A DNA stretch of 64,000 nt from positions 137,618 to 201,617 of the forward strand of contig JANRKO010000019.1 of assembly GCA_033763455.1 (NCBI GenBank). Direction: 5' to 3'. Source of the stretch: Polyangiaceae bacterium. Lineage in GTDB: Bacteria > Myxococcota_A > Polyangia > Polyangiales > Polyangiaceae. The notes under the pieces are model-generated. The model was not told where the DNA came from and searched no databases. It worked only from the letters and a program-made list of their open reading frames with translations. Shown here piece after piece: positions 29,594 to 49,728 of this stretch; positions within the stretch are counted from its first letter, which is position 1; every line of letters begins with the position of its first letter. The translations under genes and the position numbers were made by a program.

Positions 29594-31357
29594 ATGGATC
29601 CCGAATACGCGAATCTCGTCGAACTGTTCGAGCAAGCCTGCGCCAAGTTCGATGCTCGCGAGTTGTTCGGAACCAAGCGGGGTGGCCGCTGGGAGTGGAT
29701 GACGTTCGGGCAGTTCAAGGCCGACGTGGATAAGTGCCGGGGCGGCCTCGCGCAGCTGGGAGTGAGAGCCGGGGATAAGGTGGCGATAATCTCCAATAAT
29801 CGCGTGGAATGGGCGGTGTTGGCGTACGCCACCTATTCGCTCGGGGCGGTTTACGTACCGATGTATGAAGTACAGCCCAAGGATGAATGGGCTTTCATCT
29901 TGCATGATTCCGACGCCAAAGTGGTGGTCGCAGCGACTCGGGTGATTGCGGAAACGTTGGAAGGCTTGCGAACCGGCTGTCCCAAGTTGGAAAAGATCAT
30001 CAGCTTGGAGGGCCCCGGTGGCTCCCTCTCTTACGAAGCCCTGCTCAGCCAGGGCGCCAGAACACCCAAAGATCCCGTGTATCCAGCGTCGAGTGAGGTT
30101 GCCGGCTTCATCTACACGTCGGGCACCACCGGGATGCCCAAGGGCGTAGTCCTCTCGCACTCGAACATCTGCTTCGACATTTGGGCCTCATTTTCCTGTT
30201 TTGACTTTGGCCCGCTAGACCGCTCGTTAGCGTTTTTGCCCTGGGCACACTCTTACGGCCAAGTAGCAGAGCTGCACGGGCTCCTTAGCCGCGGCACCTC
30301 GATCGCGATCAACGACGAGGTACCAAACCTCGTCGCCAACTTGGCCGAGGTGCGGCCAACCGTGCTGGTTGCCGTACCAAGGATCTTTAACCGCATCTAC
30401 GACGGCATCCAGAAACAGATGGCGGCCAAGCCGGGCGCCATTCGCGCGTTGTTCAAAAAAGGCGTCGACGTAGCCGGAAAAAAGAGCCGGGGTGAGAGAA
30501 TTGGCACGCTCGATAGCATGGCCCACGCCTTGGCGGATAAGCTCATTTTCTCCAAGGTTCGAGCCAAATTCGGCGGCCGGTTGCGGTTTGTGGTGAGCGG
30601 AAGCTCGGCACTCAACAAAGACGTCGCCATGTTCATCGATGCGCTCGGAATCGAGGTTTATGAAGGATACGGCCTCAGCGAAACGAGCCCCGTGGCAGCG
30701 AGCAATTACCCCGGGCACCGCAAGATCGGCAGCGTTGGCCTACCGCTACCAGGCGTCGAAATTCGTATTGATAAGAGCGTTTCCGATGATAACCACCAGG
30801 GGGAGATCTTGATCAAAGGTCGCAATGTAATGCAAGGTTATCACAATCGCCCGGAAGAAACGGCCCTAGTACTCCCAGGTGACGGTTACCTCCGCACAGG
30901 AGATCTCGGCTACCTTGATGAAGACGGTTACCTCTTCATCACTGGGCGCCTGAAAGAGCAATACAAGCTGGAAAACGGTAAATACGTGGCGCCGGCACCG
31001 CTCGAAGAGGACCTCAAGCTTTCGCCGTTCATTCTAAATGCCATGCTGTACGGCGCCAACCACGCCTACAATGTGGCCCTCATCGTGGTCGACAAAGTAG
31101 CAGTTGCCGAGTGGGCCAAAGAAAATGGCGTTGAACTAGGGGACCTCTCGAAGAACCAGAAGCTGAACGAACTTCTGTTTCGTGAGATTGAGACCTATGG
31201 GTCTAAATTCAAGAGCTTCGAGCGGCCCAAGAAGCTCTTCATCACCGACGAAGATTTTAGTACAGAAAATGAGCTTCTAACCCCATCCCTCAAGATCAAA
31301 CGGCGCAATGTGTTGGCCAAATATGGCAAACAATTAGAGGCACTCTATTCGGAGTAA
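29594..31357 (+). CDS. long-chain fatty-acid--CoA ligase (AMP-dependent synthetase)
   Basis: AMP-binding motif YTSGTTGMPKGVVLSH, and TGD...GYL. Confidence 0.8.
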   Translation: MDPEYANLVELFEQACAKFDARELFGTKRGGRWEWMTFGQFKADVDKCRGGLAQLGVRAGDKVAIISNNRVEWAVLAYATYSLGAVYVPMYEVQPKDEWAFILHDSDAKVVVAATRVIAETLEGLRTGCPKLEKIISLEGPGGSLSYEALLSQGARTPKDPVYPASSEVAGFIYTSGTTGMPKGVVLSHSNICFDIWASFSCFDFGPLDRSLAFLPWAHSYGQVAELHGLLSRGTSIAINDEVPNLVANLAEVRPTVLVAVPRIFNRIYDGIQKQMAAKPGAIRALFKKGVDVAGKKSRGERIGTLDSMAHALADKLIFSKVRAKFGGRLRFVVSGSSALNKDVAMFIDALGIEVYEGYGLSETSPVAASNYPGHRKIGSVGLPLPGVEIRIDKSVSDDNHQGEILIKGRNVMQGYHNRPEETALVLPGDGYLRTGDLGYLDEDGYLFITGRLKEQYKLENGKYVAPAPLEEDLKLSPFILNAMLYGANHAYNVALIVVDKVAVAEWAKENGVELGDLSKNQKLNELLFREIETYGSKFKSFERPKKLFITDEDFSTENELLTPSLKIKRRNVLAKYGKQLEALYSE

Positions 31358-33687: not shown

Positions 33688-34380
33688 CTAGAGGCGAGCC
33701 GTCCAGACGCGTTCAGCGCTGCCGGGGCGAGTCACGAACAAGCGCAGTGTTACCGGAGCCCGTTCACCCATGAGATAAAGCACGCGGATTTTGTGCTCCC
33801 CGGGAGCCAGCGGGATGCTGCCCATCGCATTATGAGCCTTCCTGCTGTCGTCGTTGTTCACGACTTGGCGGCCATTAATCCACAGGATGGCGGCGCCCTG
33901 GGTCTTTAACCGAAACTTATAGTTGCCAGCCGCCGAAACGGAGAATCTGCCAGTGTAGTTAATGGCAAACCAGTCGTAGCGCTCGGCGATTCCTGGGAAA
34001 CCCGAAAAGTAGCGCTGAGCTACGTCCAAGCTATCCACGAACAAGCGACCTTGCGGGATGCACCGTTCAAGGCGCAGCAAAGACACTGTGTTAGGCTTAA
34101 CAAAGCACACTGTACCCGCGAGCGCTGCTTTGCGGCTGTGGCCAAACAAGGTGCTCCCCGACACCACAGGTACGCGACCACCTTTGTGACTCGCCCAACG
34201 CTCGCCCATGCCAGCGGGCGTGCCGCCTTGCTCGACACCGTACCCGTCCATTCTGTTGCGGCTAGCAGTTCGGATCCGTTCCCCCAACGACTGACCATGG
34301 GCCGCGCCAGCTAAGCTCAGCACTCCAAGTGCCACGCGACTCCCCCACTTCCACAACGTCCCGATCACCATGCGTTTCAC
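33688..34380 (-). CDS. secreted PA14 domain protein
   Basis: Signal peptide plus a PA14-like core (GRFSVSAAGNYKFRLKTQGAAILWINGRQVVNND). Confidence 0.7.
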   Translation of the reverse strand: MKRMVIGTLWKWGSRVALGVLSLAGAAHGQSLGERIRTASRNRMDGYGVEQGGTPAGMGERWASHKGGRVPVVSGSTLFGHSRKAALAGTVCFVKPNTVSLLRLERCIPQGRLFVDSLDVAQRYFSGFPGIAERYDWFAINYTGRFSVSAAGNYKFRLKTQGAAILWINGRQVVNNDDSRKAHNAMGSIPLAPGEHKIRVLYLMGERAPVTLRLFVTRPGSAERVWTARL

Positions 34381-34534
34381 TTCACTAGCACAAGTGCCCA
34401 GTGGACCGCGCCATCAGCTAAGACATGCTGTGGAAACAATTAAGCAAACTGCCCGAAAACCCTAGAGAAATCCTGACATTTCGAGTGCTGGTTTCCCTTG
34501 CTATGCCGGGAGCGGGCGTCTATCTCCGTGACTC

Positions 34535-35986
34535 ATGGATCTCAAACACTACGAAGTGGATCCGAAGAGTTACGACGAAATGTTCGACGCGAGCGGCGAG
34601 GTTCGGCCGGCCTATCGGGAACTTGCGCGGCGGCTCGGCGAAATGTCCGGTGAAGATTTCACCCGGCGGCAACGCACGGCAGATATCTTGCTGCGAAACC
34701 AGGGCGTCACGTTCACCGTGTACTCGGACGACGCGGGCATTGAGAAGGTTTTTCCGTTCGACCCCATCCCGCGCCTGATGCCTGCCGAAGAATGGAGCCT
34801 GATTGAACGCGGCTTGATTCAGCGCATTGAGGCCTTGAACCTTTTCATTGCTGACATCTATGGGGATCAACACATCCTCAAAGACAAAGTGGTTGATCCT
34901 GAGCTCATCTTAGGCGCCTCATTTTTCCGCCGTGAGATGATGGGGTTTAGGCCGCCTCGTGGGATCTATACCCACATCACCGGCACAGATTTAATTCGCG
35001 ATGCCAACGGAAAATTCGTCGTCCTAGAAGACAATGCTCGGAACCCAAGCGGCGTGAGCTACGTGCTTGAATGCCGCGCAGTTCTGAAACGTGTCTTCCC
35101 GCTCTTGTTCGAAACGTACGGAGTGCGCCCGGTTGAAGATTACGCCAATTGGCTCCGCGACATGATGCAATTTGTAGCGCCACGAGGCTCATCCAATCCA
35201 AGCATGGTGGTGCTGACGCCGGGCATCTACAATTCGGCGTACTTCGAACACAGCTTTTTAGCCCGCCAAATGGGTGTACCGCTCGTCGAAGGTCGAGATT
35301 TGGTCGTAAAAGATGGAATGGTGTGCATGCGCACGATTACCGGGCTGCAGCGGGTGGATGTTATCTACCGGCGCCTGGATGATGACTTTCTGGACCCACT
35401 TATCGGTCGCCCTGATTCGGTATTGGGCTGCGCGGGGCTTTTCTCGGCGTATCGCAGTGGGGCGGTGACGCTCGTGAACGCACCAGGCACAGGCGCCGTG
35501 GACGATAAAGCTGTCTACCCGTTCGTGCCGGACATGATTCGTTATTATCTTAAGAGTGAACCTATCATTGACAACGTTCCAACCTATTTGGCAACCCGCC
35601 CGGATGAGCAGAAGTACATGCTCGAGAATATCCACGAACTGGTGATCAAACAGACCGACGCTTCCGGCGGCTACGGCATGTTGATTGGCACGCACTCTAC
35701 GGCAGAGGAACGCGAAGACTTCAAACGGCGCATCAAGGCTAAGCCCCGCTCCTACATTGGCCAACCCACTATCAGTCTCGGCAAACATCCCACAGTAATC
35801 GACGGTAAGCTGGAAGGGCGGTGCGTCGATTTGAGGCCTTATGTCCTTTATGGCGAGCGAATTTCGGTCATTCCAGGAGCCCTCACCCGGGTGGCACTCA
35901 GGAAGGGCTCTCTCGTTGTTAATTCAAGCCAAGGTGGTGGCTACAAAGATACCTGGGTGCTCACTGATAAGGGAGGCGCAGCCTAA
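34535..35986 (+). CDS. circularly permuted type-2 ATP-grasp protein (DUF404/DUF407)
   Basis: 483-aa protein with the characteristic order of this amidoligase family; its stop overlaps the next start. Confidence 0.75.
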
Positions 35987-36903
35987 TGTTAAGCCGAGTT
36001 GCAGACGCCCTTTATTGGATGAGCCGTTACGTCGAACGTGCTGAGCACGCAGCACGTGTCCTCGAGGTCACACGCCGCATGTTGATCGACGTTGAGCCCC
36101 TCGCCCCTCAAATGGCCAAACGCATTCGGGACGACGCATTTCGCAGCTTGGGCCTTCCGGGCGTCGACTTGCACGGAGCCATCTTCGACGAATCAGAGCC
36201 TGGGTCTATCGCCTCCTCTGTCTTCAGAGCCCGAGAGAATGCTCGTCAGGTGCAGGAGGTTATTAGCTCGGAGATGTGGGGCTATATCAACGAGACGCAC
36301 TGGATGCTCTCGGAGGCCCGTCGGGCGGGGCCTTCGCGTGAGCTGCCAGACCTCTTGGGTGAAGTAGTAAAGGCTGGGTTTCTTTGGGCTGGGGTTACGG
36401 ATGCCACTATGGGTCGCGGGCCTGGTTGGTTGTTTATTCGCCTGGGCCAGTTCGTTGAACGAGCGGACCGAACGAGTCGAATTTTTGCGGCACAATGGGA
36501 GGCCATCGAGGAGTTGAGTACTGAGGCCATCCACACCTCGGGCGATCACTTTGCCTGGCTCACATTGCTTCGGAGTTGCGGATCGCTTGAGGAGTATAGG
36601 AAGCGGTACCCAACACGCATGACAGCACGGCAAGTGGCGGATTTTATGCTGCTAGACGACACCTTTCCGCGCACCGTGCGCTACTCAGTCTCAGTTGCGG
36701 CCGAATTTTCAAAACGCTTAACCCAGTTCGCAAGCCCCGAACGCGCCCGCGCTGAACGCGCGTTTGGGAGAGTCGCTTCTCGCATCGAATACACCACCAT
36801 CGACGAAGTTATGGAGACCGGCCCAGCTGTGTTCGTGAGAGGCGTTGCAGAAGAGATCTTGCTGGCGACAGCCGAGCTCCAGAGCGCGTATTTCTTGCAC
36901 TAA
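35986..36903 (+). CDS. alpha-E domain protein (DUF403)
   Basis: [21 protein letters not shown]... is a hallmark alpha-E N-terminus. Confidence 0.75.
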   Translation: MLSRVADALYWMSRYVERAEHAARVLEVTRRMLIDVEPLAPQMAKRIRDDAFRSLGLPGVDLHGAIFDESEPGSIASSVFRARENARQVQEVISSEMWGYINETHWMLSEARRAGPSRELPDLLGEVVKAGFLWAGVTDATMGRGPGWLFIRLGQFVERADRTSRIFAAQWEAIEELSTEAIHTSGDHFAWLTLLRSCGSLEEYRKRYPTRMTARQVADFMLLDDTFPRTVRYSVSVAAEFSKRLTQFASPERARAERAFGRVASRIEYTTIDEVMETGPAVFVRGVAEEILLATAELQSAYFLH

Positions 36904-36912
36904 CGAGGACCC

Positions 36913-37932
36913 ATGCTGCTGTTCATCAAACACCTCACCGAACTCACGTATTCGGAGCCCATCACCGAAACGGTGATGGAAGTTCGCATGACTCCGCGAA
37001 ACGATGCCCACCAAGTGCGGCGCGCGTTTCGCCTGGAGGTGGGGCCCAGCGCCACACCTTTCGAACACACAGATTGGCTCGGTAACCGCGTGCAGCAGTT
37101 CTCCATTTTGCCCCCGCACGATAAAGTCGTGATCTTGGCTCGGAGCGTGGTGGATACGCAGCCAAGGCACTCAGTGCTCGCAGATGTGAATCGCGGGTCA
37201 GTGCCTCCGCTCGACCATCGAATCGGCGACTATTTGCGCTTCACCGGGCCGGTTGTGGACGTTCACAACCTCGACCGTTTGATTCAAAATTTGGGGCTCG
37301 GGGCACCGGCGTCGCCTGAAGTTATTCTGCAACGAGTCGCGTCAAACCTGCGCGATCACGTGGAGTACCGTAAAGGCGTTACCACGAGCGCCACGGCGAT
37401 CGACAAGGTGCTCGAGCAGCGCGCTGGTGTGTGCCAGGATCTGGCTCACGTGGCCATTGGGATCTTGCGCAAGCTCGGCGTACCAGCTCGCTACGTGTCG
37501 GGGTATTTCTATCGCGCGGATGGAAACAGCGAGATGGAGAGCCATGCTTGGTGCGAGGCGCACTTCCAGGGCACAGGTTGGCTCCCGATAGATCCCACCC
37601 ACAAAACACTGGCGGGCGAAGGGCACGTTGCTATCGCGAGCGGTCGCGATTTCTCTGACGTTTCACCCAATCGCGGCGTCTATCGCGGCAAGGGTGAAGA
37701 GAGCCTGCGCGTAAGAGTCACCGTGCAAGAGGTGCAAGAGGTACCCGAAGGCTTATTTGCCGTAGGCTCACCCGAAGTCGAGGTGCAGCCAATTGGAGGA
37801 GGCATGCTTCCCACCCACCGCGAAGCTCTCGAATACCAGCAAGAACAGCAGCAACAGCAGCAACAGCAGCAACAAGTACAGCAGCAACAGCAGCAACAAG
37901 TACAGCAACACCAATATTCGGCTGTGCACTGA
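36913..37932 (+). CDS. transglutaminase-like cysteine protease family protein with C-terminal poly-Q tail
   Basis: Bact_transglu_N-like N-terminus, Cys/His/Asp core (GVCQDLAHVAIGILR...HAWCEAHF...GWLPIDPTH), and C-terminal QEQQQQQQQQQQVQQQQQQQVQQHQ. Confidence 0.75.
   Translation: MLLFIKHLTELTYSEPITETVMEVRMTPRNDAHQVRRAFRLEVGPSATPFEHTDWLGNRVQQFSILPPHDKVVILARSVVDTQPRHSVLADVNRGSVPPLDHRIGDYLRFTGPVVDVHNLDRLIQNLGLGAPASPEVILQRVASNLRDHVEYRKGVTTSATAIDKVLEQRAGVCQDLAHVAIGILRKLGVPARYVSGYFYRADGNSEMESHAWCEAHFQGTGWLPIDPTHKTLAGEGHVAIASGRDFSDVSPNRGVYRGKGEESLRVRVTVQEVQEVPEGLFAVGSPEVEVQPIGGGMLPTHREALEYQQEQQQQQQQQQQVQQQQQQQVQQHQYSAVH
37820..37925 (+). repeat. CAG/CAA trinucleotide repeat (two copies of a 27-bp CAG-rich unit) encoding the poly-Q tail
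   Basis: cagcagcaacagcagcaacaagtacag appears twice in tandem within a CAG/CAA run. Confidence 0.8.
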
Positions 37933-37942
37933 GCCTTATCCC

Positions 37943-40900
37943 ATGGCCATTCGAGTTCGTCTCAGTCATCAAACGCGTTACCGTTACGACAAGCCCATTA
38001 ACCTGGGCCCACAAACGGTTCGCCTCCGACCAGCACCCCACAACCGCACGCCCCTACACACGTATGGGCTTCACATCGAACCCAAGGGCCACTTTCTCAA
38101 TTGGCAGCAGGATCCTTACGGCAATTATCTGGCAAGGCTGGTTTTCCCAGAAAAGGTAGACCATTTTGAAGTCACCGTCGATTTGGTCGCCGATCTTGAG
38201 GCGTACAATCCGTTTGATTTTTTCGTCGAGCCAGAAGCCGAGAATTTCCCTTTCAGCTACGAGCCCACACTTAAAAAAGAGCTAGAGCCCTATCTAGAGC
38301 AAGACCCCCTAACGCCCGCCCTCGCAGCTTTCATCGACAGTTTGAACAAGACACCGCGGAGAGTTAACGATTTCCTTGTAGAAACGAACCGCGCTGTAAA
38401 TGAGGCCGTTAGCTACATTATTCGCCTGGAGCCGGGCGTCCAAAGTCCCGAAGAAACGCTCACTCTGGCCAAGGGCTCGTGTCGAGATTCTGCATGGCTA
38501 TTGGCGGTGGTGTTGCGAAAGCTAGGCCTGGCGGCCCGGTTTGTTTCCGGATACCTCATCCAGCTCACGCCAGATCAGCGCCCGATTGAAGGCGCCCAGG
38601 GCCCGCTCGCAGACTTTTGCGACTTGCATGCCTGGTGTGAAGTCTACGTTCCCGGCGCCGGTTGGATTGGGTTAGATGCAACGAGCGGGCTTCTGACAGC
38701 CGAAGGGCACATTCCGCTCGCGTGTTCCCCAAGCCCAGGTTCTGCGGCACCCATTTCGGGGCTGTTGGATGAAGCCGAAACCGATTTCAGCCATCACATG
38801 TTTGTGGAACGCGTGGTGGACGTTCCCCGCGTCACCAAACCCTATACCGATGAAGAGTGGGCCGCCGTTGAGAAGTTCGGCACCAAGGTGGATGAGCATC
38901 TAACGCGCTCAGACGTTCGCCTCACCGTAGGGGGTGAGCCCACCTTTGTGAGCACCGAATACCCGGATGACGCCGAATGGAACACGGACGCCCTTGGTAA
39001 AAATAAGGAAGGCCTTGCCGATAAGCTGATTCGCCGTTTGCGGAGCGACTGGTATCCCAAAAGCGCCCTCTACCATGCGCAGGGCAAGTGGTACCCGGGT
39101 GAGCCTTTGCCGCGGTGGGCTATTTCCTGCTTCTTTCGCACCGACGGCGTGCCCGTTTGGAATGATCCTGCGCTTATAGCCGATACCAACAAGAGCTACG
39201 ACCACGGGCCCAAAGAGGCCGAAGCCTTCGCAAAGCGTTTGATCGAGAATCTCGGGCTCGAGCGCCACGGCCTGATGCCAGCGTTTGAGGATGCTTGGTA
39301 CTACATGTGGCGCGCGCGGCGTTTACCTGTAAACGTGATGCCGCTCGATAATCGCGTGGATGATGAGGTGGAGCGCGAGCGAATAGCGGCCGTATTCAAC
39401 CAAAAGCTATCCAGCGTGGTGGGCTATGTGCTCCCCCTGACGTATTGGGGTGGTTGGCGCAGTGGGTCTTTTTTCCTCAAAGATGAACGCTGCTACCTGC
39501 TTCCTGGTGATTCGCCGATGGGTTACCGCTTGCCTTTGGATTCCCTACCGTGGATCGCCCAGGAAGATTGGGACGGCAACATTCCGGTAGATCCTTTCGC
39601 GCGCCAGCCTTCGTTGCCAAAGGCCTTTCACTTCCCGTTGATGCCGGCGCCCGCGATGCCGGCGCCTATCCGCCGTGTGGTGCCTTCTCTGCCGAAAGCC
39701 GAAGTTGCGCCCAACGGGCAGCCAAAAGGCGCCGTTCCTTCACCTCGCGGCGCCGCCCCAGGCAGCACTCATGCCGCGCCGTTCACGTCACCCGCACAGT
39801 TCGAGTCTGCCACGGGCGTGGTGCGCACCGCTTTGTGTGTCGAGCCCCGAGCCGGTCGTTTGCGGATCTTCTTGCCTCCACTGGAAACGCTCGAAGCGGC
39901 CCTTGAGCTCATCGCCGCCATCGAAACAACCGCGGCGCAGCTGAAGCTACCCGTGCAACTGGAAGGCTACGAACCCCCGAGGGATCCGCGGCTCGGCGTG
40001 TTTCGTGTCACTCCGGATCCGGGTGTGATCGAGGTCAACGTGCCCCCGGTCTCCAGTTTTGCGGCGCAGAAGCTCCAAACCCTCTCGCTCTATGAACACG
40101 CTCGCCAAGTAAAGTTGAGCGCCGAAAAGTTTGATCTCGACGGCACCCACATCGGCAGCGGCGGTGGCTACCACCTCGTGCTTGGCGGAATGACGCCTGA
40201 AAATAGCCCATTTTTGCGGCGACCAGATTTGCTCGGCAGTTTGATTCGTTATTTTCACAACCACCCCAGCCTCTCTTATCTTTTCTCAGGGCGCTTCATC
40301 GGCCCCACCTCGCAATCGCCACGCGTGGATGAAGGCCGCAACGACAGCATCTACGAACTCGAAATAGCTCTCCAACAGTTGCCGCAAAAGGGGCAGAACG
40401 TTCCACCGTGGATTGTGGACCGTGTGCTCCGGCACTTGCTCGCAGACGTTACTGGCAACACCCATCGGACGCAGTTCTGCATCGATAAGCTCTATTCCCC
40501 CGATAGCGCTACAGGGCGGCTCGGCCTCTTGGAGCTGCGCTCTTTCGAAATGCCACCGCATGCCCAAATGGCGGTCGTGCAACAGCTCTTAGTGGGCGCT
40601 ATGGTCGCGAGTTTTTGGGAGCAACCTTATCGTGAAGATCTGGTGTCGTGGAACACGATGCTGCACGATAAATTCATGCTCCCCTACTTCGTAAAGCGTG
40701 ACTTTTACGAGGTGCTGGCCGATCTTGAGCGACGCGGATTCAAGCTCGATCGCCACTGGTTCGAGCCACATTACCAGTTTCGGTTCCCGTATATCGGGCA
40801 CGTGGTTAAGGATGCTGTAACCCTAGAGATACGTGGCGCTCTCGAACCCTGGAATGTGCTCGGAGAAGAGAGCACTGGAGCCGGGACTGCCCGCTACGTG

Positions 40901-41332
40901 GATTCATCAGTTGAACGCTTGCAGGTACGCGTATTCGGTGCCACACCCGGCCGGCATATTGTGTGTTGCAACAACGTGGAGCTACCGCTTGTTGCCACTG
41001 GCGTGGAAGGCGAAATGGTAGGGGGCGTGCGTTATCGAGCCTGGCAACCCCCATCATGCCTTCACCCAACCATCGGCGTTCAGTCACCGCTTGCGTTCGA
41101 TTTGTACGATCGTTGGAACGGCGTGGCGATTGCGGGGGCCACCTATCACGTAGTGCACCCGGGAGGCCGGGCGGATGAGGTCCGCCCCGTAAATGCAGCA
41201 GCCGCGGAAAGCCGCAGGCTCGCTCGCTTCGAGGCTCGCAGCGTAGGCACCCGTTTGGTTCAACCGCGGCGCCTGGAGCCCCATCCGAAGTTCCCATTTA
41301 CGCTCGATTTACGCCGGGCTTGGCTAGCCTAA
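37943..41332 (+). CDS. large transglutaminase-family protein (Bact_transglu_N + TGase core + ~800-aa C-terminal region, Rv2566-like)
   Basis: Internal ATG MAIRVRLSHQTRYRYDKP. Core GSCRDSAWLLAVVLRKLGLAARFVSGY...HAWCEVYVPGAGWIGLDATSG. Total 1129 aa. Confidence 0.75.
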   Translation: MAIRVRLSHQTRYRYDKPINLGPQTVRLRPAPHNRTPLHTYGLHIEPKGHFLNWQQDPYGNYLARLVFPEKVDHFEVTVDLVADLEAYNPFDFFVEPEAENFPFSYEPTLKKELEPYLEQDPLTPALAAFIDSLNKTPRRVNDFLVETNRAVNEAVSYIIRLEPGVQSPEETLTLAKGSCRDSAWLLAVVLRKLGLAARFVSGYLIQLTPDQRPIEGAQGPLADFCDLHAWCEVYVPGAGWIGLDATSGLLTAEGHIPLACSPSPGSAAPISGLLDEAETDFSHHMFVERVVDVPRVTKPYTDEEWAAVEKFGTKVDEHLTRSDVRLTVGGEPTFVSTEYPDDAEWNTDALGKNKEGLADKLIRRLRSDWYPKSALYHAQGKWYPGEPLPRWAISCFFRTDGVPVWNDPALIADTNKSYDHGPKEAEAFAKRLIENLGLERHGLMPAFEDAWYYMWRARRLPVNVMPLDNRVDDEVERERIAAVFNQKLSSVVGYVLPLTYWGGWRSGSFFLKDERCYLLPGDSPMGYRLPLDSLPWIAQEDWDGNIPVDPFARQPSLPKAFHFPLMPAPAMPAPIRRVVPSLPKAEVAPNGQPKGAVPSPRGAAPGSTHAAPFTSPAQFESATGVVRTALCVEPRAGRLRIFLPPLETLEAALELIAAIETTAAQLKLPVQLEGYEPPRDPRLGVFRVTPDPGVIEVNVPPVSSFAAQKLQTLSLYEHARQVKLSAEKFDLDGTHIGSGGGYHLVLGGMTPENSPFLRRPDLLGSLIRYFHNHPSLSYLFSGRFIGPTSQSPRVDEGRNDSIYELEIALQQLPQKGQNVPPWIVDRVLRHLLADVTGNTHRTQFCIDKLYSPDSATGRLGLLELRSFEMPPHAQMAVVQQLLVGAMVASFWEQPYREDLVSWNTMLHDKFMLPYFVKRDFYEVLADLERRGFKLDRHWFEPHYQFRFPYIGHVVKDAVTLEIRGALEPWNVLGEESTGAGTARYVDSSVERLQVRVFGATPGRHIVCCNNVELPLVATGVEGEMVGGVRYRAWQPPSCLHPTIGVQSPLAFDLYDRWNGVAIAGATYHVVHPGGRADEVRPVNAAAAESRRLARFEARSVGTRLVQPRRLEPHPKFPFTLDLRRAWLA

Positions 41333-41433
41333 AGTTGGGTGCTTGAACGGCCTGGCACCTACGGGCACAACGCTAACCTCTGCCTCTCCCAGGCACCGCG
41401 AGCGCTAGGACCCACTCACGGCAAAGGACCCGT

Positions 41434-43992
41434 TTGCTCCCAACCCAGTTTCAGTCCCAATCCCAGTCAGAACCGCCTCCGTCCACGGGCGGTGGCGAGT
41501 CCTACGACGAGATCTGGAGCGGCCCTGGCCACGCGAGGGCCCACCAGGCGCTCTTGCAGGAGCACCTACTAGTTCAGCCCCTGGACGATCTGCTGAAGGT
41601 TCGCCAGGCGGTTGAGCGTCAGATGGCCGAGCAAGCTGTTACGTTCAACATCTTGGGCGTTCCCGGAGGCGAAAACCGCTCTTGGGAGCTCGACCCAATC
41701 CCATGGGTGATTGAAAGTCGCGAATGGGCAGAGCTGTCGCGGAAGCTCGTACAACGAGCCCAGCTCCTGGAAGCGTTCTTGGCGGACTGTTACGGCCCGC
41801 AACGCATGCTGCGCGAAGGTGTCATTCCGGCCCGCGTGGTCCTCGCCAATCCAGACTTTCTGCGAGCGTGTCACGGCTGGCGCCCACTCGGAGAGAAGCG
41901 TCTATGGCTCTACGCTGCAGATCTCGCACGCGACAAAGCTGGTGATTTTCACGTATTTTCCGATCGCGCCGCAGCACCTACAGGGGCGGGCTACGCGCTC
42001 GAAAATCGCCTGGTTTTGGGGCGGGTTTTAGGGGATTTGTTCCGTGAATACCGGGTCACGAAAGTTCGGGGTTTCTTCGAAAAGCTGAAGGCGTGCGTAG
42101 CCGAGTTGGCTCCACCGGGCCGCCCCGATCCCCGTGCGATCGTGCTCACAACGGGCATGCAAGATGAGAGTTCGTTCGAGCATGCCTACTTAGCTCGCTA
42201 CCTCGGCTTTGATCTTATGGAGGGCCGAGATCTGAGCGTGAGAGACGGCAAAGTCTTCCTAAAGACAGTCGCCGGGCTCACCCAGATCGACGTGATTTTG
42301 CGCCGTGTTCCAGATGCCTTCTGTGATCCTGTCGAGCTTCGCGAAGATTCCATGATCGGCGTTCCCGGCCTCGTGGAAGCCGCCCACGGAAAACACATTG
42401 GGTTGGCCAATCCGCTTGGGGCAAGCCTCATCGAATCACCTGCAATGAAAGCATTTCTCGGGCCCCTGTGCCAAGCCCTTCTGGGAGAGGATTTGCTGTT
42501 ACCTTCGGTGGAGACTCACTATCTCGGGACGCCCGGATCGCTAGAATACGTACAATCCAAGCCTGAAGAATTCCTGATAAAACCAGCCTTTGCAGAGCGT
42601 CGCGGGGCGATTCGGCCTTTGGGCGAGTTGAGTATCTCCGAGCGAACAACGCTTTTAGATTCTGTGAAGGCGCGCCCTCACGACTTCGTAGCGGAACGCT
42701 GGCCCGCCTGCTCTCGCAGCCCCCTTCTCACTCGACACGGCCTCGGAGCAGGAAGGCTTACCCTGCGCTCATTTCTGTGCCGCGACAAAGAATCTTTCGC
42801 CGTGATGCCGGGGGGCTTCGCACGGCTTGATTCAACACCAGACGGCATCTTCCTCACCAACCGCCTTACGCGAACCTGCAAAGACGTTTGGATCCCTGAG
42901 GTGGGTACGACCTACGACATGAAGTTGCCGCAGATGCCCGATCAACGCATGTCGCTCCGACGTGGTGCCCAAGATCTACCAAGCCGCTTGGTGGACGATA
43001 TTTTTTGGTTGGGGCGTTACATCGAACGCACCGATGCTTCAGCTCGTTTGATCCGCGCCGGTTTTGACCGCCTAGGAATGGAAGCCGCTGGTGACGCGCA
43101 GCAAGTATTAGAAGCAATTCTTGAAGCGTTGAAGCTCAAGGGGCAGCTACCAGCGACGTTCGATGTGCGCGGTATGTTTTCGAAGCCCGATAATCGAGCC
43201 CTGGCGCAGGTGCTAAACGGCGCATTATTCGATCAAACCTCCGGCAGCAGCGTGTACGCCACGCTCGATCGTATCCACAAACTCATGATCGGCGTAAGAA
43301 GCCGCCTTTCCCGTGACGCGTGGCATACGTTGAGGCGTCTTACGAGTGCCCTGGATGCAACCCCACTGCACCATTCGTCGCTCGGCACGGCCGAGATCTT
43401 GGAACTTCTGGACGAGCTTCTGGTACTGCTTTCTGCTGCCACCGGAGCCACGCTCGATAACATGGTGCGAGGCCACGCCTGGCTGTTTCTCGATCTCGGG
43501 CGCCGCCTTGAACGAGCGTCGGCTACCCTGGAACTGTTGGAAGCGATGCTGCCATCAGGGGCCACGCGCGCGCACATGGAATGCTTATTGGAAGTTACAG
43601 ATAGCTTGCTCACGTATCGCGCCCGCTACGTTTCTAGCCTGCAAGTGGCCCCCATCGTTGACCTCCTACTTACAGACAATACCAATCCGCGCTCTGTGCT
43701 CTTTCAAGTCGAAACCATCGATCAGCACGTAGAAGCACTACCTAACCAAAGCGGCGCTCTGGTAACACGAGCCGAAAAGCGCGTGCTCACCCTCCGAACC
43801 CGCCTCGTCGCAGCAGATATCGAGGAAGCCACCGGGGGTCAAGGCGAAGGCCTGCGCCAACTTGTGAAAGACGCCGCCGAGCTTGTTTGGCAGCTCTCTG
43901 ATGATATCGCCGCGACGTGGTTTTCACACGCAGCCCCCTCACGCTCGCTCACCATTCCCGCTTGGGTTAACGAACAACTCGAACGCCAGTGA
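41434..43992 (+). CDS. fused circularly-permuted ATP-grasp + alpha-E domain protein (Rv2567-like)
   Basis: The N-terminal half is paralogous to 34535..35986. The C-terminal ~300 aa is an alpha-E domain (FWLGRYIERTDASARL). Confidence 0.7.
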   Translation: MLPTQFQSQSQSEPPPSTGGGESYDEIWSGPGHARAHQALLQEHLLVQPLDDLLKVRQAVERQMAEQAVTFNILGVPGGENRSWELDPIPWVIESREWAELSRKLVQRAQLLEAFLADCYGPQRMLREGVIPARVVLANPDFLRACHGWRPLGEKRLWLYAADLARDKAGDFHVFSDRAAAPTGAGYALENRLVLGRVLGDLFREYRVTKVRGFFEKLKACVAELAPPGRPDPRAIVLTTGMQDESSFEHAYLARYLGFDLMEGRDLSVRDGKVFLKTVAGLTQIDVILRRVPDAFCDPVELREDSMIGVPGLVEAAHGKHIGLANPLGASLIESPAMKAFLGPLCQALLGEDLLLPSVETHYLGTPGSLEYVQSKPEEFLIKPAFAERRGAIRPLGELSISERTTLLDSVKARPHDFVAERWPACSRSPLLTRHGLGAGRLTLRSFLCRDKESFAVMPGGFARLDSTPDGIFLTNRLTRTCKDVWIPEVGTTYDMKLPQMPDQRMSLRRGAQDLPSRLVDDIFWLGRYIERTDASARLIRAGFDRLGMEAAGDAQQVLEAILEALKLKGQLPATFDVRGMFSKPDNRALAQVLNGALFDQTSGSSVYATLDRIHKLMIGVRSRLSRDAWHTLRRLTSALDATPLHHSSLGTAEILELLDELLVLLSAATGATLDNMVRGHAWLFLDLGRRLERASATLELLEAMLPSGATRAHMECLLEVTDSLLTYRARYVSSLQVAPIVDLLLTDNTNPRSVLFQVETIDQHVEALPNQSGALVTRAEKRVLTLRTRLVAADIEEATGGQGEGLRQLVKDAAELVWQLSDDIAATWFSHAAPSRSLTIPAWVNEQLERQ

Positions 43993-44858
43993 CGCTCTAC
44001 CGCCTCCGCCACCTCACGCGCTACCAATACGAATCGCCGGTTGTGCACGCACACCACGTGGCGAGGATGCGCCCCATGCCGTCGCCATTTCAGCGGGTTT
44101 TGTCCAGCGAAATCACGACCAGCCCGGAAGCAACCTTTACGGCGAGCGTGCGAGATTATTACGGCAATCTACAAGATTTTTTCGAAATTCTGAAAGATCA
44201 CGATGTGCTCGAGGTAACGGCCGTGAGTGAAGTAGAGCCGCTCCTCCGTCGGCCCGGGGGCGCCCTGGAAGGCTATGCGTTAACCTGGGAAGATGCTCGC
44301 CTCGTAGCCAGTGCGCCCTACACGGAGGTCGAGGATTTCGGGTACGATTCCCCTCTAGTGCGGGTCCACCCAGATCTTCGGGCGTATGCGGCTCCGAGCT
44401 TTCCACCTGGGCGCCGCATCGTCGAAGCCGTGAGCGACCTTAATCAGCGCATTTTTGATGAATTTGCATACGACCCTGCGGCCACAGATGTGACCACTCC
44501 GCTCGGAGAGGTTCTCCGTGAAAAGCGCGGCGTTTGCCAGGATTTTGCGCACCTTGCCATCGGCTGTTTGCGAAGCCTGGGCCTGCCTGCGCGCTACGTG
44601 TCCGGTTACCTTGAGACGGCGCCGCCTCCCGGCGAAGAACGCTTGGTGGGCGCTGATGCTTCACACGCCTGGGCTGAAGTGCACCTGCCAGGGCTAGGGT
44701 GGCTTGAGTTTGACCCCACGAACGCTGTTCTGCCTTCAACGAAGCATATTCGCGTGGCTCACGGTCGCGACTTCAGTGACGTGAGTCCGCTTAAGGGTGT
44801 TGTCTTGGGCGGCGGGCGCCACACGCTCACTGTCGAAGTGGATATGGCGCCGATCTGA
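43989..44858 (+). CDS. transglutaminase-like family protein (Rv2569c-like)
   Basis: MTLYRLRHLTRYQYESPV...; GVCQDFAHLAIGCLR...HAWAEVHLPGLGWLEFDPTN. The start overlaps the upstream stop. Confidence 0.75.
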   Translation: MTLYRLRHLTRYQYESPVVHAHHVARMRPMPSPFQRVLSSEITTSPEATFTASVRDYYGNLQDFFEILKDHDVLEVTAVSEVEPLLRRPGGALEGYALTWEDARLVASAPYTEVEDFGYDSPLVRVHPDLRAYAAPSFPPGRRIVEAVSDLNQRIFDEFAYDPAATDVTTPLGEVLREKRGVCQDFAHLAIGCLRSLGLPARYVSGYLETAPPPGEERLVGADASHAWAEVHLPGLGWLEFDPTNAVLPSTKHIRVAHGRDFSDVSPLKGVVLGGGRHTLTVEVDMAPI

Positions 44859-44975
44859 GTTGCTCTAAAGTGGTGCAACCCACACACACTCACCCACAGG
44901 TGCAACGAGCCGTGCTCCTTGCTGAAATGGCCAACTCAAGGTATACAGGCTGCTTCTACCCTCCGGTGTTTTCGC

Positions 44976-46052
44976 ATGCTTCTTAACAGAAATAGTGTGT
45001 TCTTGGTTGCTATTGGCGTAGCTTCGGCTTGTTCGCCGAATACCGGGAGCGCCCCTCCACGGGGGGGCGGTTTGCCAGAAGCAGGCGCTGGCCCCGCTTC
45101 TGGAGGCGCTCGTGCGACGGGTGGGAGCATCTCGACATTAGGGGGCTCTCCCAGCGTGGGCTCGGGTGGTGCTTCGCCGCTGGGAACTGGCGGCACATCG
45201 TCCGCCGGTGGCAGTGGTGGGTTAACGGCATCTGGCGGCACTGGCGGAACGAATTCGGGAGGTACTGCGACCGGCGGAACAACGAGCGGAACCGGCGGAG
45301 GAGCGACTGGGGGAACCAATACCGCTTCGGGCGGCTCCCCTAGTGTCTCGTGTCCGGCGCAAGGTACGGGCGGGCTCGCGAGTCTTTCTACGGGGCTTAT
45401 CGGCTATTGGAAGTTCGATGAGGCAGACACCAGCGGGGCAACTACCGCGGATGCCAGTGGCATGAATTTTTCGGGTACCTACAGTGCTACCAAGCCTGCG
45501 CTCACTACGGCTGTGCCCCCTCTGTTGACCGGGAAAAGCATGAAGGCCATAGTATTTAATGGCACAAATGAGGTGAAGTTACCGGCAGGTTCGTTCGGTA
45601 ACTGGAGCGCGGCCACAAGCTACTCGATTTCTGCCTGGGTCCAAGTGACGGCGTTGGATGGTGACTGGATGGGGATCATTGCAAACGAAGCAGCCGGCGC
45701 CACGACGTATTGTGGACTCTATATTGGCGGCGCCCAGAACAGCACTCAAAACGCCTTCCGATACCAAGGAAATGAAACAGGGTTCGGGGATCTGGTCCCA
45801 ACGCCGGGCGTTTGGTACCACCTTGCGCTGGTTCAAGATGTGTCCGGGAACGCGCAAAGGCTGTACGTGAATGGTCAGCCCGCGGGCACTGGCGAACTGA
45901 AAGACTGCGCCACCACGGGCGTGTTTCACTTTGGTTCGGTCGATGGTGCCGATACGCCCACTTTCTTCAACGGAAGCCTAGATGACGTACGTTTCTATAA
46001 CCGCGCACTCATGCCAACCGAAGTTACCGCTCTAGCCTGCGGAGCTCAGTAG
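44976..46052 (+). CDS. lipoprotein with Gly/Ser/Thr-rich linker and LamG-like (concanavalin A-like lectin) domain
   Basis: Lipobox LVAIGVASAC, a long GGS/GGT linker, and a C-terminal FNGSLDDVRFYNRAL LamG_3-like motif. Confidence 0.65.
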   Translation: MLLNRNSVFLVAIGVASACSPNTGSAPPRGGGLPEAGAGPASGGARATGGSISTLGGSPSVGSGGASPLGTGGTSSAGGSGGLTASGGTGGTNSGGTATGGTTSGTGGGATGGTNTASGGSPSVSCPAQGTGGLASLSTGLIGYWKFDEADTSGATTADASGMNFSGTYSATKPALTTAVPPLLTGKSMKAIVFNGTNEVKLPAGSFGNWSAATSYSISAWVQVTALDGDWMGIIANEAAGATTYCGLYIGGAQNSTQNAFRYQGNETGFGDLVPTPGVWYHLALVQDVSGNAQRLYVNGQPAGTGELKDCATTGVFHFGSVDGADTPTFFNGSLDDVRFYNRALMPTEVTALACGAQ

Positions 46053-46695: not shown

Positions 46696-46726
46696 GGCGG
46701 CTCCTTTGTGTAATGGCCGAATGTGA

Positions 46727-46768
46727 GCCCCGTTGGGCCCGAAGTGGGCCCCGTTGGGCCCGAAGTGG
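46727..46768. repeat. perfect 21-bp tandem duplication in the divergent promoter region
   Basis: gccccgttgggcccgaagtgg x2. Confidence 0.8.
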
Positions 46769-46884
46769 AGCTTGAGCGAAACTGTGGCGGGAACGCGTCC
46801 GGATTTGCTGTCTTCTCGACCAGCCGTCAAGCGCAGTGGCCATTTTCACCCCCGTCGGCTGTTCTTGACAAACCCGATGTGGGA

Positions 46885-47370
46885 ATGCATATCGGAAGGG
46901 TGAAACTCTCGAATAAGGGCCGCTATGCTGTGCGGGCGCTGTTCGATATCGCGTTTTTCAACGGTGGGCAGCCCACTCAGGTGAAGGACATCGCGGAGCG
47001 GCAGCAAATTCCGCCGCGTTTCCTGGAGCAGATCTTTCAAGATCTCAAGCGCGCGGGCCTCGTAGGTTCGAAGCGGGGGCCTCAAGGGGGCTACAACTTG
47101 GCGCTAGGCGCCGGAGAGGTGCGCCTCGGGGACGTGGTGCGTGCGCTTGAGGGCCCTATCTCGCTCGGAGACCGTGAGTCCGAAGGAGGGGCCAACGCTG
47201 CCAAGGAGCCCGCGGGCAATTCCCGGCGGATCACCGAACAGATATTTGTGGATCTTTCGGCGCGCGTCGAAGCCTGTTTTGACGCAATCACTATTCAACA
47301 CATCTGTGATCTTGCGGAAGCTGAAGGGCTTAGGCGCCCAGGAGCGCAACGTTATGTCTACGTCATCTGA
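46885..47370 (+). CDS. Rrf2 family transcriptional regulator (CymR/IscR-like)
   Basis: MHIGRVKLSNKGRYAVRALFDIAFF... HTH; the gene overlaps the cysK start. Confidence 0.75.
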   Translation: MHIGRVKLSNKGRYAVRALFDIAFFNGGQPTQVKDIAERQQIPPRFLEQIFQDLKRAGLVGSKRGPQGGYNLALGAGEVRLGDVVRALEGPISLGDRESEGGANAAKEPAGNSRRITEQIFVDLSARVEACFDAITIQHICDLAEAEGLRRPGAQRYVYVI

Positions 47371-48337
47371 GCGGAACGAGCCCGGCCGTCCTTCGCTTCC
47401 GTCGCACCGGTTGGTGTACCCGAGCGTTTTAGATTTGATCACAGATACGCCGCTTGTGGAGGTGCGCAAGTTGGCAACGGATGCACCGCGTGCACGCGTC
47501 TACGCCAAAATCGAGTCAGCAAATCCCGGTGGGTCGGTGAAGGATCGCATCTGCTTGGCCATGATTGAGCAGGCAGAGCGTGAAGGCTTGTTGGGCCCAG
47601 GTGGCGTCGTTATCGAGCCAACGAGCGGCAACACGGGAATTGGGCTGGCGCTAGTGTGTGCAAGCCGAGGTTATCGCTGCGTTTTGACCATGCCGGAGAG
47701 CATGAGTCTTGAGCGCCGGCAGCTGCTGCAATCCTTTGGTGCGGAGGTTGTTCTGACGCCCGAATCGGAGCAGATGGAGGGAGCTATCGCGAAGGCGCGA
47801 GAGCTGGCCCTGGAAATCAAAGGTGCTTTCATGCCGCACCAGTTCGACAACCCGGCGAACCCAGCCGTGCATGAGCGCACCACCGGCCCCGAGATCTTAG
47901 CCGCAATGCAGGGAGATCCGATCCATGCTTTTGTCGCTGCGGTGGGTACGGGCGGTACAGTGAGTGGTGTGGGTCGCGTGTTGCGCAAGGCGTACCCCAG
48001 TTGTCGGGTGATCGCCGTCGAGCCGGAATCTTGCGCCACCATTTCCAAGGGCGAACGTGGGCCGTCTAAGATCCAGGGGATCGGCGCCGGTTTTGTCCCC
48101 GGCAACTACGATGCAAGCATCGTGACTGAGGTGCGCACGGTGGGTGATCGCGTGGCGTACGATACAAAAGTGTCGCTAGCAAAACGCGAAGGTTTACTCG
48201 TGGGGATCAGCGCCGGAGCGAATGTGGCTGTTGCTTTGCAAGTTGCCCGTGAGCTTGGCCCAAGCAAAAATGTGCTTACCGTGCTGTGTGACACGGGCGA
48301 AAGATATTTCAGTTTAGACGAGTACTTCCGTGACTGA
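47354..48337 (+). CDS. cysK: cysteine synthase A (O-acetylserine sulfhydrylase)
   Basis: PLP-lysine motif NPGGSVKDRI, and GNTGIGLA. Confidence 0.85.
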   Translation: MSTSSERNEPGRPSLPSHRLVYPSVLDLITDTPLVEVRKLATDAPRARVYAKIESANPGGSVKDRICLAMIEQAEREGLLGPGGVVIEPTSGNTGIGLALVCASRGYRCVLTMPESMSLERRQLLQSFGAEVVLTPESEQMEGAIAKARELALEIKGAFMPHQFDNPANPAVHERTTGPEILAAMQGDPIHAFVAAVGTGGTVSGVGRVLRKAYPSCRVIAVEPESCATISKGERGPSKIQGIGAGFVPGNYDASIVTEVRTVGDRVAYDTKVSLAKREGLLVGISAGANVAVALQVARELGPSKNVLTVLCDTGERYFSLDEYFRD

Positions 48338-49082
48338 TCCCGAGCGCCCTTTTGCCACGCATTCCGTGCTCGTGGTGGGTGTCGGTGGCCTTGGGTGTCC
48401 TGCCGCGTTGGCGCTTGTGCGGGCTGGCGTGGGGCGCGTGGTTCTGGCGGATGACGACGAGGTCGACATTACGAATCTGCACCGGCAGATTTTGTTCGAA
48501 GAGTCAGACGTCGGGACCCCGAAGCTGGACGCGGCACACAGGGCTCTTCAGAGGCACCTGGAAGGCTTTCAGAGGGTCGAGCTCGTGCGCTCACGGCTCT
48601 TGCCAGAAAATGCGCTCGCGTTGCTCAGCGGGGTCGACGTGGTTGTCGAGGGCGCCGACAACTTCGCCACGAAATTTCTCGCGGCAGATGCCGCGCACTT
48701 GGCAAGCGTACCGGTGGTGCACGGCGCGGCAATTCGCTTCCAAGGCACCGTACTGGCCGTGCCTCCGGGGGGGCAGCCTTGCTATCGCTGCTTGTTTGAA
48801 GACGTTCCAGGAGCGGAAGCCGGCCTTAATTGCGCGCAGGCGGGGGTGATGGGGCCTGTGGTGGGGGTGATAGGAGCCCTGATGGCGGACAACGCTCTTC
48901 GGATATTGGCCCAGGATATGAGCGTTTTTGGCAAAATCGCTACCTTCGACGGAAAACGCGATCGTCTTCGATTTGTCCCGCTGACGCCCAATCCCAAGTG
49001 CCCGCTGTGTGGGCCCACGCAAAGCATTGGCGATGTCCGCGAGTCGCGGTACATCGACGGCCTCTCTTTTGTAACTGCCTGA
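48330..49082 (+). CDS. ThiF/MoeB/MoeZ-family E1-like adenylyltransferase
   Basis: [19 protein letters not shown] nucleotide loop and CxxC...CPLC pairs; the GTG start overlaps the cysK stop. Confidence 0.75.
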
Positions 49083-49093
49083 AAGGAATAGTC

Positions 49094-49363
49094 ATGGATG
49101 TGATCGTTCGAATCCCAACCCCTCTTCGTACCCTCACCGGTGGTGAAGAACAGGTCAAAGTTGCCGGCGGTACAGTGCAGCAGGTTATCGATGCCATGGA
49201 AGCACTCCACCCAGGCATCAAAGATCGTTTGCTGGATGAAAAGGGCGTTCGCCGCTTCATCAATATCTACGTGGGCGAAGAAGATATTCGGTTTCTGGAT
49301 GGCCTAGCCACCCCCACAGCTGGCCAAGAGATCAGCATTGTTCCCGCCATCGCTGGCGGCTGA
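49094..49363 (+). CDS. cysO: MoaD/ThiS-family sulfur carrier (CysO-like)
   Basis: 89 aa ending ...IVPAIAGG, located between the E1-like gene and cysM. Confidence 0.6.
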
Positions 49364-49383
49364 TCCCTTGCTGCTCCGGCACT

Positions 49384-49728
49384 TTGAATGCGCTCAACCC
49401 TCTGTTTTATCCTCGGTGGTTTGTGAGTTCCGACGCACGCTTTCGTCCGCAGGTGCGCCTGGCCGAAGTGGGCCACTTGGGTATGCAGAAGATCCTGGCA
49501 GCTCGCTTTAGGGTGCGGGAGCAGCCGGGCGCCTGGGTGGAGCAGGCGTACCTGGAGCGAGCAGGAGGCGCCGTGGAATCAGTAAGAGGCCAAGGCACCA
49601 CCACCCCGCCCCAGGAGCCTGAATTTGCGCACCGCACGGCGTTTCACTATGCGGCTGCCGAAGAGATTGCCGGCGGAAGCTGGCGCGCCCTCCGCCAGTT
49701 AAGACAAACCTTGGGGATCTTGCCATGA
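49384..49728 (+). CDS. hypothetical protein, translationally coupled to cysM
   Basis: 114-aa ORF whose TGA overlaps the cysM ATG (ATGA). No recognisable domain, and the start is uncertain. Confidence 0.3.
   Translation: MNALNPLFYPRWFVSSDARFRPQVRLAEVGHLGMQKILAARFRVREQPGAWVEQAYLERAGGAVESVRGQGTTTPPQEPEFAHRTAFHYAAAEEIAGGSWRALRQLRQTLGILP

Follow-up and report, generated by a model that had tools for sequence, protein, structure and literature searches.

A cluster of six genes in the metagenome-assembled genome of a Polyangiaceae (Myxococcota) bacterium (contig JANRKO010000019.1) encodes two sets of circularly permuted (CP) ATP-grasp, alpha-E and transglutaminase (TGase)-like proteins. The cluster was analysed within a window of 64,000 nucleotides (nt), the whole stretch of DNA under study, in which the six open reading frames (ORFs) fill positions 34535-44858 of the + strand; set 1 denotes positions 34535-37932 and set 2 positions 37943-44858. 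In 2009, Iyer, Abhiman, Burroughs and Aravind reportedly predicted a peptide-ligation or tagging system made up of a CP ATP-grasp, an alpha-E protein, a TGase-like peptidase, an optional Anbu protein and a TGase fused to a permuted COOH-NH2 ligase. All families of this system but Anbu are present in the window in operonic order: the CP ATP-grasp twice, alpha-E with its ER motifs, the TGase triad and the fusion of a TGase with a DUF2126 domain. The system, with the linked Anbu "ancestral proteasome" operon, occurs in thousands of genomes, and its substrate has been unknown since 2008-2009. An earlier sequence-only reading of this DNA had described the neighbourhood as known from comparative genomics but without a proven function, and none of the six proteins matched any model in NCBIfam or any anti-phage defence model in PADLOC.

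The order of the first four genes of the cluster recurs in Burkholderia cenocepacia H111 in I35_5080-5083 (BCAM1233-1236), which encode a DUF404/407 ATP-grasp, a DUF403 alpha-E protein, a TGase and a large TGase. When nitrogen is limiting, I35_5080-83 rank with the genes that depend most strongly on sigma-54/NtrC, and their expression was 6- to 9-fold lower in an ntrC mutant (PMC5491218). In marine metagenomes, the domains of the system also show covariation with domains of urea metabolism (PMC3597751). In contrast to the sigma-54/NtrC-dependent cluster of B. cenocepacia, no such promoter was found for the cluster in the window: the sigma-54 pattern TGGCAC-N5-TTGCW gave 33 matches vs 38.5 expected, and none of them was upstream of 34535. 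A TGG...TTGC motif around position 34488 was considered as a sigma-54 promoter and rejected, as its spacing is 2 nt too short.

The Anbu operon of Pseudomonas, Yersinia bercovieri and Hyphomicrobium consists of ATP-grasp, alpha-E, TGase and Anbu genes (PMC3235984, PMC5666114, PMC6376114). The operon is one without a known function (PMC6376114, PMC5666114, PMC8665760), and Anbu itself still had none assigned in 2021. The release of phosphate from ATP by the split ATP-grasp of Yersinia is the only published biochemistry (PMC6376114). Set 1 corresponds to this operon minus its last gene, the difference being that a DUF2126 gene follows set 1 in the window instead of Anbu.

Mycobacterium tuberculosis carries the two sets at separate loci, as opposed to 10 nt apart in the window. 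The domain architectures of Rv2566-Rv2567-Rv2569c and Rv2411c-Rv2409c match those of the window, Rv2566 being a TGase with a carboxylate-amine ligase (PMC2588565), and the resemblance to an Rv2566/67/69-like and a three-gene-type version that had been read from the sequence holds. Rv2566-type proteins, consisting of a TGase and a C-terminal domain, were assigned by Iyer et al. 2008 to the carboxylate-amine ligase superfamily together with PafA, and Pup-like ORFs were noted to be absent (PMC2588565). Among the ATP-binding proteins, Rv2567 and Rv2411c belong to these families; both were tried as candidates for GABA (gamma-aminobutyric acid)-trehalose synthesis, and neither made the product (bioRxiv 2026.04.15.718621).

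For comparison, we used the best 80 of at least 600 matching stretches from a degenerate-pattern scan seeded with a DUF2126 alignment, with one genome per species. These loci, numbered with the prefix L, span Pseudomonadota (alpha, beta and gamma), Myxococcota, Desulfobacterota, Planctomycetota, Verrucomicrobiota, Acidobacteriota and Bacteroidota, and the six window proteins were placed on them by tblastn. Loci with at least 5 kb upstream and at least 8 kb downstream (n = 54) are referred to as well-flanked. The order DUF2126, ATP-grasp::alpha-E fusion, TGase was found in 96-97% of those of the 80 loci that had enough flank, and a set-2-type stand-alone TGase was present in 97% of the DUF2126 loci with enough downstream sequence. 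A split ATP-grasp and alpha-E pair was located within 10 kb in 29 of the 54 well-flanked loci (54%), which cover Myxococcota, Pseudomonadota, Planctomycetota, Verrucomicrobiota, Acidobacteriota and Desulfobacterota; of these pairs, 12 are found upstream in the same orientation, 13 are divergently oriented and four are found downstream. The own TGase is missing from 30 of 38 adjacent split pairs, and combined clusters therefore work with one stand-alone TGase. Like the window, six of the 80 loci have two stand-alone TGases; one of the six, from a Burkholderia species (L002), shares the six-gene order of the window. The closest relative, L081 (82% identical), carries the identical six genes, and three Polyangiaceae-type loci (L082-L084, 65% identity) carry a five-gene version. 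The same layout was found in independent assemblies and in isolate genomes, and there were more than 8000 DUF2126 homologues among the matches listed. The sequence-only reading had drawn on the side-by-side position of the sets, which is not unusual: sets co-locate in more than half of the well-flanked loci and their order has been published for B. cenocepacia I35_5080-83. We conclude that the six-gene cluster is an ordinary, already-published layout of a widespread system and not an oddity.

When 5309 ORFs from 81 loci, each at least 90 amino acids (aa) long, were clustered all against all, the five core families were the only ones conserved across phyla near the cluster; shorter ORFs were inspected in the window and L081. 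The other recurrent neighbours were, as judged from sequence, lineage-specific housekeeping genes (ComEC-like, RidA-like, radical-SAM and azurin-like). Anbu was present in L024, L076, L080, L088, L089 and Ralstonia, and a tblastn search of the 64-kb window with the Anbu protein of L088 gave nothing better than an E-value of 0.006, far from the cluster. This weak match (28% over 100 aa) is at 451-720 on the - strand, in a gene running off the window edge. In L024 (17676-18398), L076 (6395-7120) and L080 (19444-20130), Anbu occurs with ATP-grasp and alpha-E, with no TGase between, beside the DUF2126 triad of genes; the set-2 TGase domains may replace the absent TGase there.

All six genes that had been read from the sequence as co-directional were found as ORFs (Table 1), and the Pfam profile search placed each of them in the predicted family. 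The large protein read from the start at 37943 has the length given earlier and is identical to an NCBI-annotated protein (P0001) of a Polyangiaceae metagenome-assembled genome; the exact-sequence look-up of the window DUF2126 protein returned no record. The true start of the fusion gene is uncertain, since alignments of homologues begin only at around residue 15-24. The intergenic spacing is, in order, -1, 9, 10, 101 and -4 nt. Overlapping start and stop codons, which had been proposed throughout each set, are thus found at two junctions only, at 35986 (1 nt) and at 43989-43992 (4 nt), while the other junctions are gaps of 9, 10 and 101 nt. Packing between the sets is as tight as within them. 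No terminator-like site was found in any intergenic gap, the sigma-70 and terminator scans being at background. Because the sets are 10 nt apart and the gaps contain no terminator-like site, the six genes are likely to be a single co-transcribed unit.

The two sets had been regarded as paralogous, and this is true but old. The identity between set-1 and set-2 proteins is 30% for ATP-grasp, 24% for alpha-E and 34% for TGase, and every protein resembles orthologues from other phyla more than it does its paralogue in the window; the split ATP-grasp, for example, is 50-59% identical to split orthologues there. The only DNA repeat within 34000-45500 is the CAG/CAA tract of a poly-glutamine (poly-Q) tail on the set-1 TGase. 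By this degree of divergence, the sets are ancient paralogues.

The ATP-grasp domains of the two sets were compared in an alignment of 35 split and 72 fused domains from the loci. The hallmarks of ATP-grasp enzymes are an ExN Mg-binding motif and a Lys with a Gly-rich ATP loop. The set-1 ATP-grasp keeps all positions invariant in the 35 split sequences, namely E165-D-N167, R169, D323-D324-K325, K372 with G378-G-Y-G381, and N463-SSQGGG-x-K471, and is predicted to be catalytically competent. On the other hand, positions that are 97-100% invariant in the split form are replaced in the fused domains: L-E165-D-N167-x-R169 reads x-(A/S)-D-R-x-Q, with N replaced by R in 94% of the 72, and D323-D324-K325 reads E-S-P. 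The G378-G-Y-G381 loop after K372 is unconserved in the fused form and N463-S-S-Q-G-G-G is degraded. The fusion of the window carries the substitutions E165 to S, N167 to R, R169 to A, DDK to ESP and GGYG to RRGA. Because residues invariant in the split form are lost, including the ExN motif and the Gly-rich loop, the fused ATP-grasp is probably a pseudo-ligase, and the ATP-grasp::alpha-E fusion is probably a non-catalytic scaffold or regulator. This agrees with the Pfam description of PF04174, derived from the 2009 paper, in which inactive forms are reportedly often fused N-terminally to alpha-E. The ER motifs of alpha-E (E17-R18 and E158-R159) are invariant in set 1 and are kept in both split and fused forms; the set-1 alpha-E is presumed to be the partner of the ATP-grasp.

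The model of the DUF2126 domain shows a glutamine synthetase (GS) fold with PafA and Dop among the structural matches, and the domain is read as a GS-fold carboxylate-amine ligase. Since the fused ATP-grasp appears degenerate, the DUF2126 domain would be the ligase of set 2 and set 1 would hold the sole intact ATP-grasp. As far as these residues tell, the sets are not functionally equivalent ligase modules, and the suggestion that they represent two specificities is weakened by the loss of the split-invariant residues from the fused ATP-grasp. Attention thereby shifts to the split ATP-grasp and the DUF2126 ligase. By sequence, no match in the PDB was found for DUF2126 or alpha-E, even in a profile search at an E-value of 10; the PDB relatives of the system are structural-genomics entries only, with 3n6x as the relative found for the ATP-grasp paralogue.

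For the set-1 TGase, the core (residues 1-290) was searched against 1.84 billion cluster representatives (50%-identity clusters), of which 145 full-length ones were kept. Its triad C174/H211/D227 was conserved in 137, 144 and 145 of the 145 representatives, respectively, and that of the set-2 stand-alone TGase in 72, 73 and 73 of 73 across the loci. The AlphaFold2 model of the set-1 TGase had a predicted local distance difference test (pLDDT) score of 86 and its best PDB match was 3isr (E-value 5e-22). The Cys-His-Asp triad is intact in all three TGase-like domains, with a fold match to 3isr. The cluster thus holds one intact ATP-grasp, one GS-fold ligase, three TGase-like domains, two alpha-E domains and one degenerate ATP-grasp. 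TGase-like domains have been predicted to reverse peptide tags, such as polyglutamate, that are added by ATP-grasp enzymes (Zhang & Aravind 2012, PMC3495828). In the only wet-lab report on a homologue of the set-2-type TGase, Rv2569c of M. tuberculosis was described as a cell-wall serine protease that cleaves E-cadherin and is inhibited by phenylmethylsulfonyl fluoride (PMSF) and 4-(2-aminoethyl)benzenesulfonyl fluoride (AEBSF), but not by E-64 or N-ethylmaleimide (NEM) (PMC11081392). We regard this report as weak evidence for peptidase activity.

We propose that the six genes together encode a composite system for amide bonds in the cytoplasm, similar to what Iyer, Aravind and colleagues predicted in 2008-2009, a reading to which we give about an even chance. 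The two sets would act in one pathway and not as two parallel specificities. The two ATP-dependent ligases would act on a peptide or protein, building gamma-glutamyl-type or C-terminal amide bonds at Glu/Gln-type carboxylates or at a C-terminus, and the papain-fold TGase-like domains would deamidate, transfer or hydrolyse those bonds, with the degenerate ATP-grasp::alpha-E fusion as a putative scaffold or regulator. The system would serve nitrogen-limitation physiology, as in the proteobacteria that have it under NtrC control.

Several points weigh against this proposal. A split pair within 10 kb is missing from around 46% of the well-flanked DUF2126 loci, and set 1 occurs without set 2 in L085, L088-L090, S. 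meliloti and Deinococcus; because each set also occurs alone, the coupling of the sets is not obligatory. The call of the fused copy as inactive draws on conservation patterns and general knowledge of ATP-grasp enzymes. The nitrogen link is extrapolated from proteobacteria, and the window has no sigma-54 promoter match upstream of the cluster. The description of Rv2569c as a serine protease does not fit a cytoplasmic Cys-His-Asp enzyme.

The same solitary occurrences would be expected if the sets were two autonomous modules that tend to adjoin, each making or remodelling its own product, a refined form of the view taken in the sequence-only reading. In each set there is one plausible ligase together with one or more TGase-like hydrolases, and each set is found alone at many loci; in M. 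tuberculosis they lie at the separate loci Rv2409c-2411c and Rv2566-2569c. However, co-location in 54% of the loci, with shuffled orientation and across phyla, would be hard to explain without a functional link. Moreover, the adjacent split pairs have mostly shed their own TGase (30 of 38), only 10 nt separate the sets in the window, and the genes of both sets respond jointly to NtrC in B. cenocepacia. We give autonomy of the modules clearly less than an even chance.

A small molecule could also be the target, for instance a gamma-glutamyl peptide resembling glutathione, or a conjugate of a polyamine or amine, with a function in nitrogen scavenging or storage and with the TGase-like domains as amidases. 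We consider this rather unlikely, while keeping it in view. No conserved transporter, racemase or other small-molecule gene is found nearby, the neighbours being the lineage-specific housekeeping genes mentioned above, and the frequent link to the proteasome homologue Anbu, together with the conserved Q tail of the set-1 TGase, points to a protein substrate.

The set-1 TGase ends in ...EYQQEQQQQQQQQQQVQQQQQQQVQQHQYSAVH. The poly-Q tail had been listed among the candidates for a precursor peptide, and it is the one that holds up. A C-terminal Q-run was found in all 120 best homologues (43-100% identity); the final residue is Q in 102 of them, and 100 close with QQQ. Their longest Q-runs span 3-11 residues (median 8), with a Q content of 3% in the core. 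Most homologues terminate straight after Q; the window protein, one of the 18 among these 120 that do not end in Q, adds YSAVH before the stop. A run of at least four Q ends 44 of the 145 cluster representatives (33-51% identical), and these 44 clump round the window protein in a neighbour-joining tree. In a second clade, assigned to Steroidobacteraceae/Povalibacter (Gammaproteobacteria) where named, 120 of 120 proteins end in Q, with runs of 1-10 residues directly after the last core strand. The Q tail is thus conserved across hundreds of homologues and at least two phyla. A variable disordered linker, with pLDDT values below 50 for residues 297-315 in the AlphaFold2 model, precedes the tail, which is modelled as a helix.

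The Q-tailed TGase was located downstream of ATP-grasp and alpha-E in eight of eight contexts (the window, L081 and L085-L090); Anbu follows in two of these, and set 2 is near in two. The Anbu homologues following the Q-tailed TGases of L088 and L089 are 45-100% identical to each other. The set-2 TGases have no Q tail. Ser-Gln-repeat ends were seen on set-2-type TGases at some Comamonadaceae/beta-proteobacterial loci, namely L008 16375-17391 (...SQSQTQSQSL), L023 16412-17383 (...SQSQSQSQTSS) and L039 6707-7756 (...SQSQSQGSY). The tail was undescribed in the literature searched, among which Iyer et al. 2009 was not included.

Slippage of CAG/CAA codons could have produced the tail as a functionless low-complexity extension: in the window the tract is repetitive at the DNA level, its length varies from one to more than 20 Q, many family members have no tail and 18 of the 120 closest proteins do not end in Q. 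On the other hand, the Q-run is retained at the extreme C-terminus down to around 35-45% identity in two phyla, in proteins with only 3% Q in the core, and the gammaproteobacterial clade is Q-ended throughout even with unslippable runs of one or two. Furthermore, the tract is made of mixed CAG and CAA codons in a pattern that varies between loci, which argues for selection on the amino acid. We judge slippage without function improbable.

The set-1 TGases of cultured Ralstonia, Sinorhizobium (ending in EQQGQSQAQN) and Deinococcus have no Q tail, nor do the extra TGases of L002, L015, L021, L078 and L079; the middle TGase of the Burkholderia type (L002) differs from that of the window in this respect. 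Because of these absences, the tail cannot be essential family-wide. The window tail itself ends in QQHQYSAVH and not in Q. At this position L081 reads CAG CAA TAA vs CAC CAA TAT TCG GCT GTG CAC TGA in the window, where 37915-37932 is the extension. The five-codon extension may be a TAA to TAT stop-loss that would bury the otherwise conserved C-terminal Gln.

Transglutaminase chemistry targets the side chains of Gln. GS-fold enzymes act on Pup, whose last residue is Gln, and RimK-type ATP-grasps extend acidic C-termini. By analogy, the Q tail might be the substrate of the system, with the TGase deamidating it or using it as acyl donor and with the ATP-grasp and alpha-E activating, extending or ligating it; this proposal is tentative and on balance unlikely. 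In a speculative version, the tail would either serve as a Gln acyl-donor or be deamidated to Glu, giving a Pup-like or RimK-like C-terminus for the adjacent ATP-grasp. The likeness to pupylation consists of the GS-like fold that DUF2126 shares with PafA and Dop, the Gln C-terminus recalling the G[EQ] end of Pup, and the proteasome homologue linked to the system in related loci. In contrast to pupylation, the protein ending in Q is an enzyme of 30 kDa, the DUF2126 domain shows a circular permutation and is joined to a TGase domain, and the Q tail travels with set 1 and not with DUF2126. No conserved small Pup-like ORF, proteasome or Mpa-type ATPase was found with the cluster, small ORFs having been inspected in the window and L081. 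RimK and the tubulin tyrosine ligase (TTL) ATP-grasps likewise combine a ligase acting on an acidic C-terminal tail with a tag-reversing peptidase, and this analogy has been drawn before (PMC3495828). They belong, however, to a separate ATP-grasp family that is not circularly permuted, and the likeness is one of analogy. The conserved Gln-terminated tail on the operon's own TGase nevertheless provides a concrete candidate substrate. If the tail is the substrate, the system would tag proteins or signal as a device complete in itself, comparable to Pup-Dop-PafA or RimK-S6 and coupled here to a second, GS-fold ligase module, and bacteria would have a new chemistry for modifying proteins that is linked to nitrogen limitation.

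The small ORFs at 44859-44975 had also been suggested as precursor peptides, and since ATP-grasp ligases do make lactam or lactone ribosomally synthesized and post-translationally modified peptides (RiPPs), we considered whether an unannotated precursor nearby could make this a RiPP or graspetide-type pathway. This is very improbable: the ORFs are 20-48 aa long, overlap with the gene that follows and show no conservation even in L081 (82% identical), with which their DNA does not align. No conserved small family was found across the 81 loci among ORFs of at least 90 aa, and the CP ATP-grasps are a different family from the graspetide ligases. Finally, an assembly or binning duplication, which had been named as grounds for abandoning the doubled module and is favoured by the repeated domain content and nothing else, can practically be discarded, as the proteins are only 24-34% identical, share no DNA repeat and recur in this layout in independent assemblies and isolates.

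Table 1. Genes of the cluster and the poly-Q coding tract, with window coordinates.
Feature	Coordinates	Strand	Matches and remarks
Set-1 CP ATP-grasp, 483 aa	34535..35986	+	Pfam CP_ATPgrasp_2 (E 3e-157) and CP_ATPgrasp_1
Set-1 alpha-E protein, 305 aa	35986..36903	+	Pfam Alpha-E (1e-72), full length
Set-1 TGase-like protein, 339 aa, with disordered linker and C-terminal poly-Q	36913..37932	+	Bact_transglu_N and Transglut_core
Poly-Q coding tract (aa 309-334 of set-1 TGase: QQEQQQQQQQQQQVQQQQQQQVQQHQ)	37837..37914	+	CAG/CAA repeat
Set-2 large protein, 1129 aa	37943..41332	+	Bact_transglu_N, Transglut_core and DUF2126 (1217 bits)
Set-2 ATP-grasp::alpha-E fusion, 852 aa from TTG start	41434..43992	+	CP_ATPgrasp_2 (2e-120) and Alpha-E (3e-67)
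Set-2 TGase-like protein, 289 aa, without Q tail	43989..44858	+	Bact_transglu_N and Transglut_core

Upstream of the cluster, the window contains a gene for an AMP-binding (acyl-CoA-synthetase-like) protein and one for a PA14-domain protein (29594-31357 and 33688-34380). An AMP-binding gene is also found directly upstream of the cluster in L081 (2109-3872), and PA14/DUF4215 proteins are encoded upstream in L082-L084 (around 5400-7240). These shared neighbours probably reflect lineage synteny and not functional linkage. The product of the next gene downstream (44919-46052) is probably secreted and combines an extended Gly/Ser/Thr-rich stretch with a Laminin_G_3 (concanavalin-like) domain; the gene is not conserved beside the cluster in relatives. 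Further downstream, the region 46723-50675 contains genes for an Rrf2 regulator (46723-47370), a PALP enzyme (47141-48337), a ThiF/E1-like protein (48330-49082), an unannotated ORF of 114 aa (49384-49728) and a second PALP enzyme (49725-50675). This region looks like a CysO/CysM-type sulfur-carrier cysteine pathway, and an Rrf2 gene is located downstream of the cluster in L081 too.

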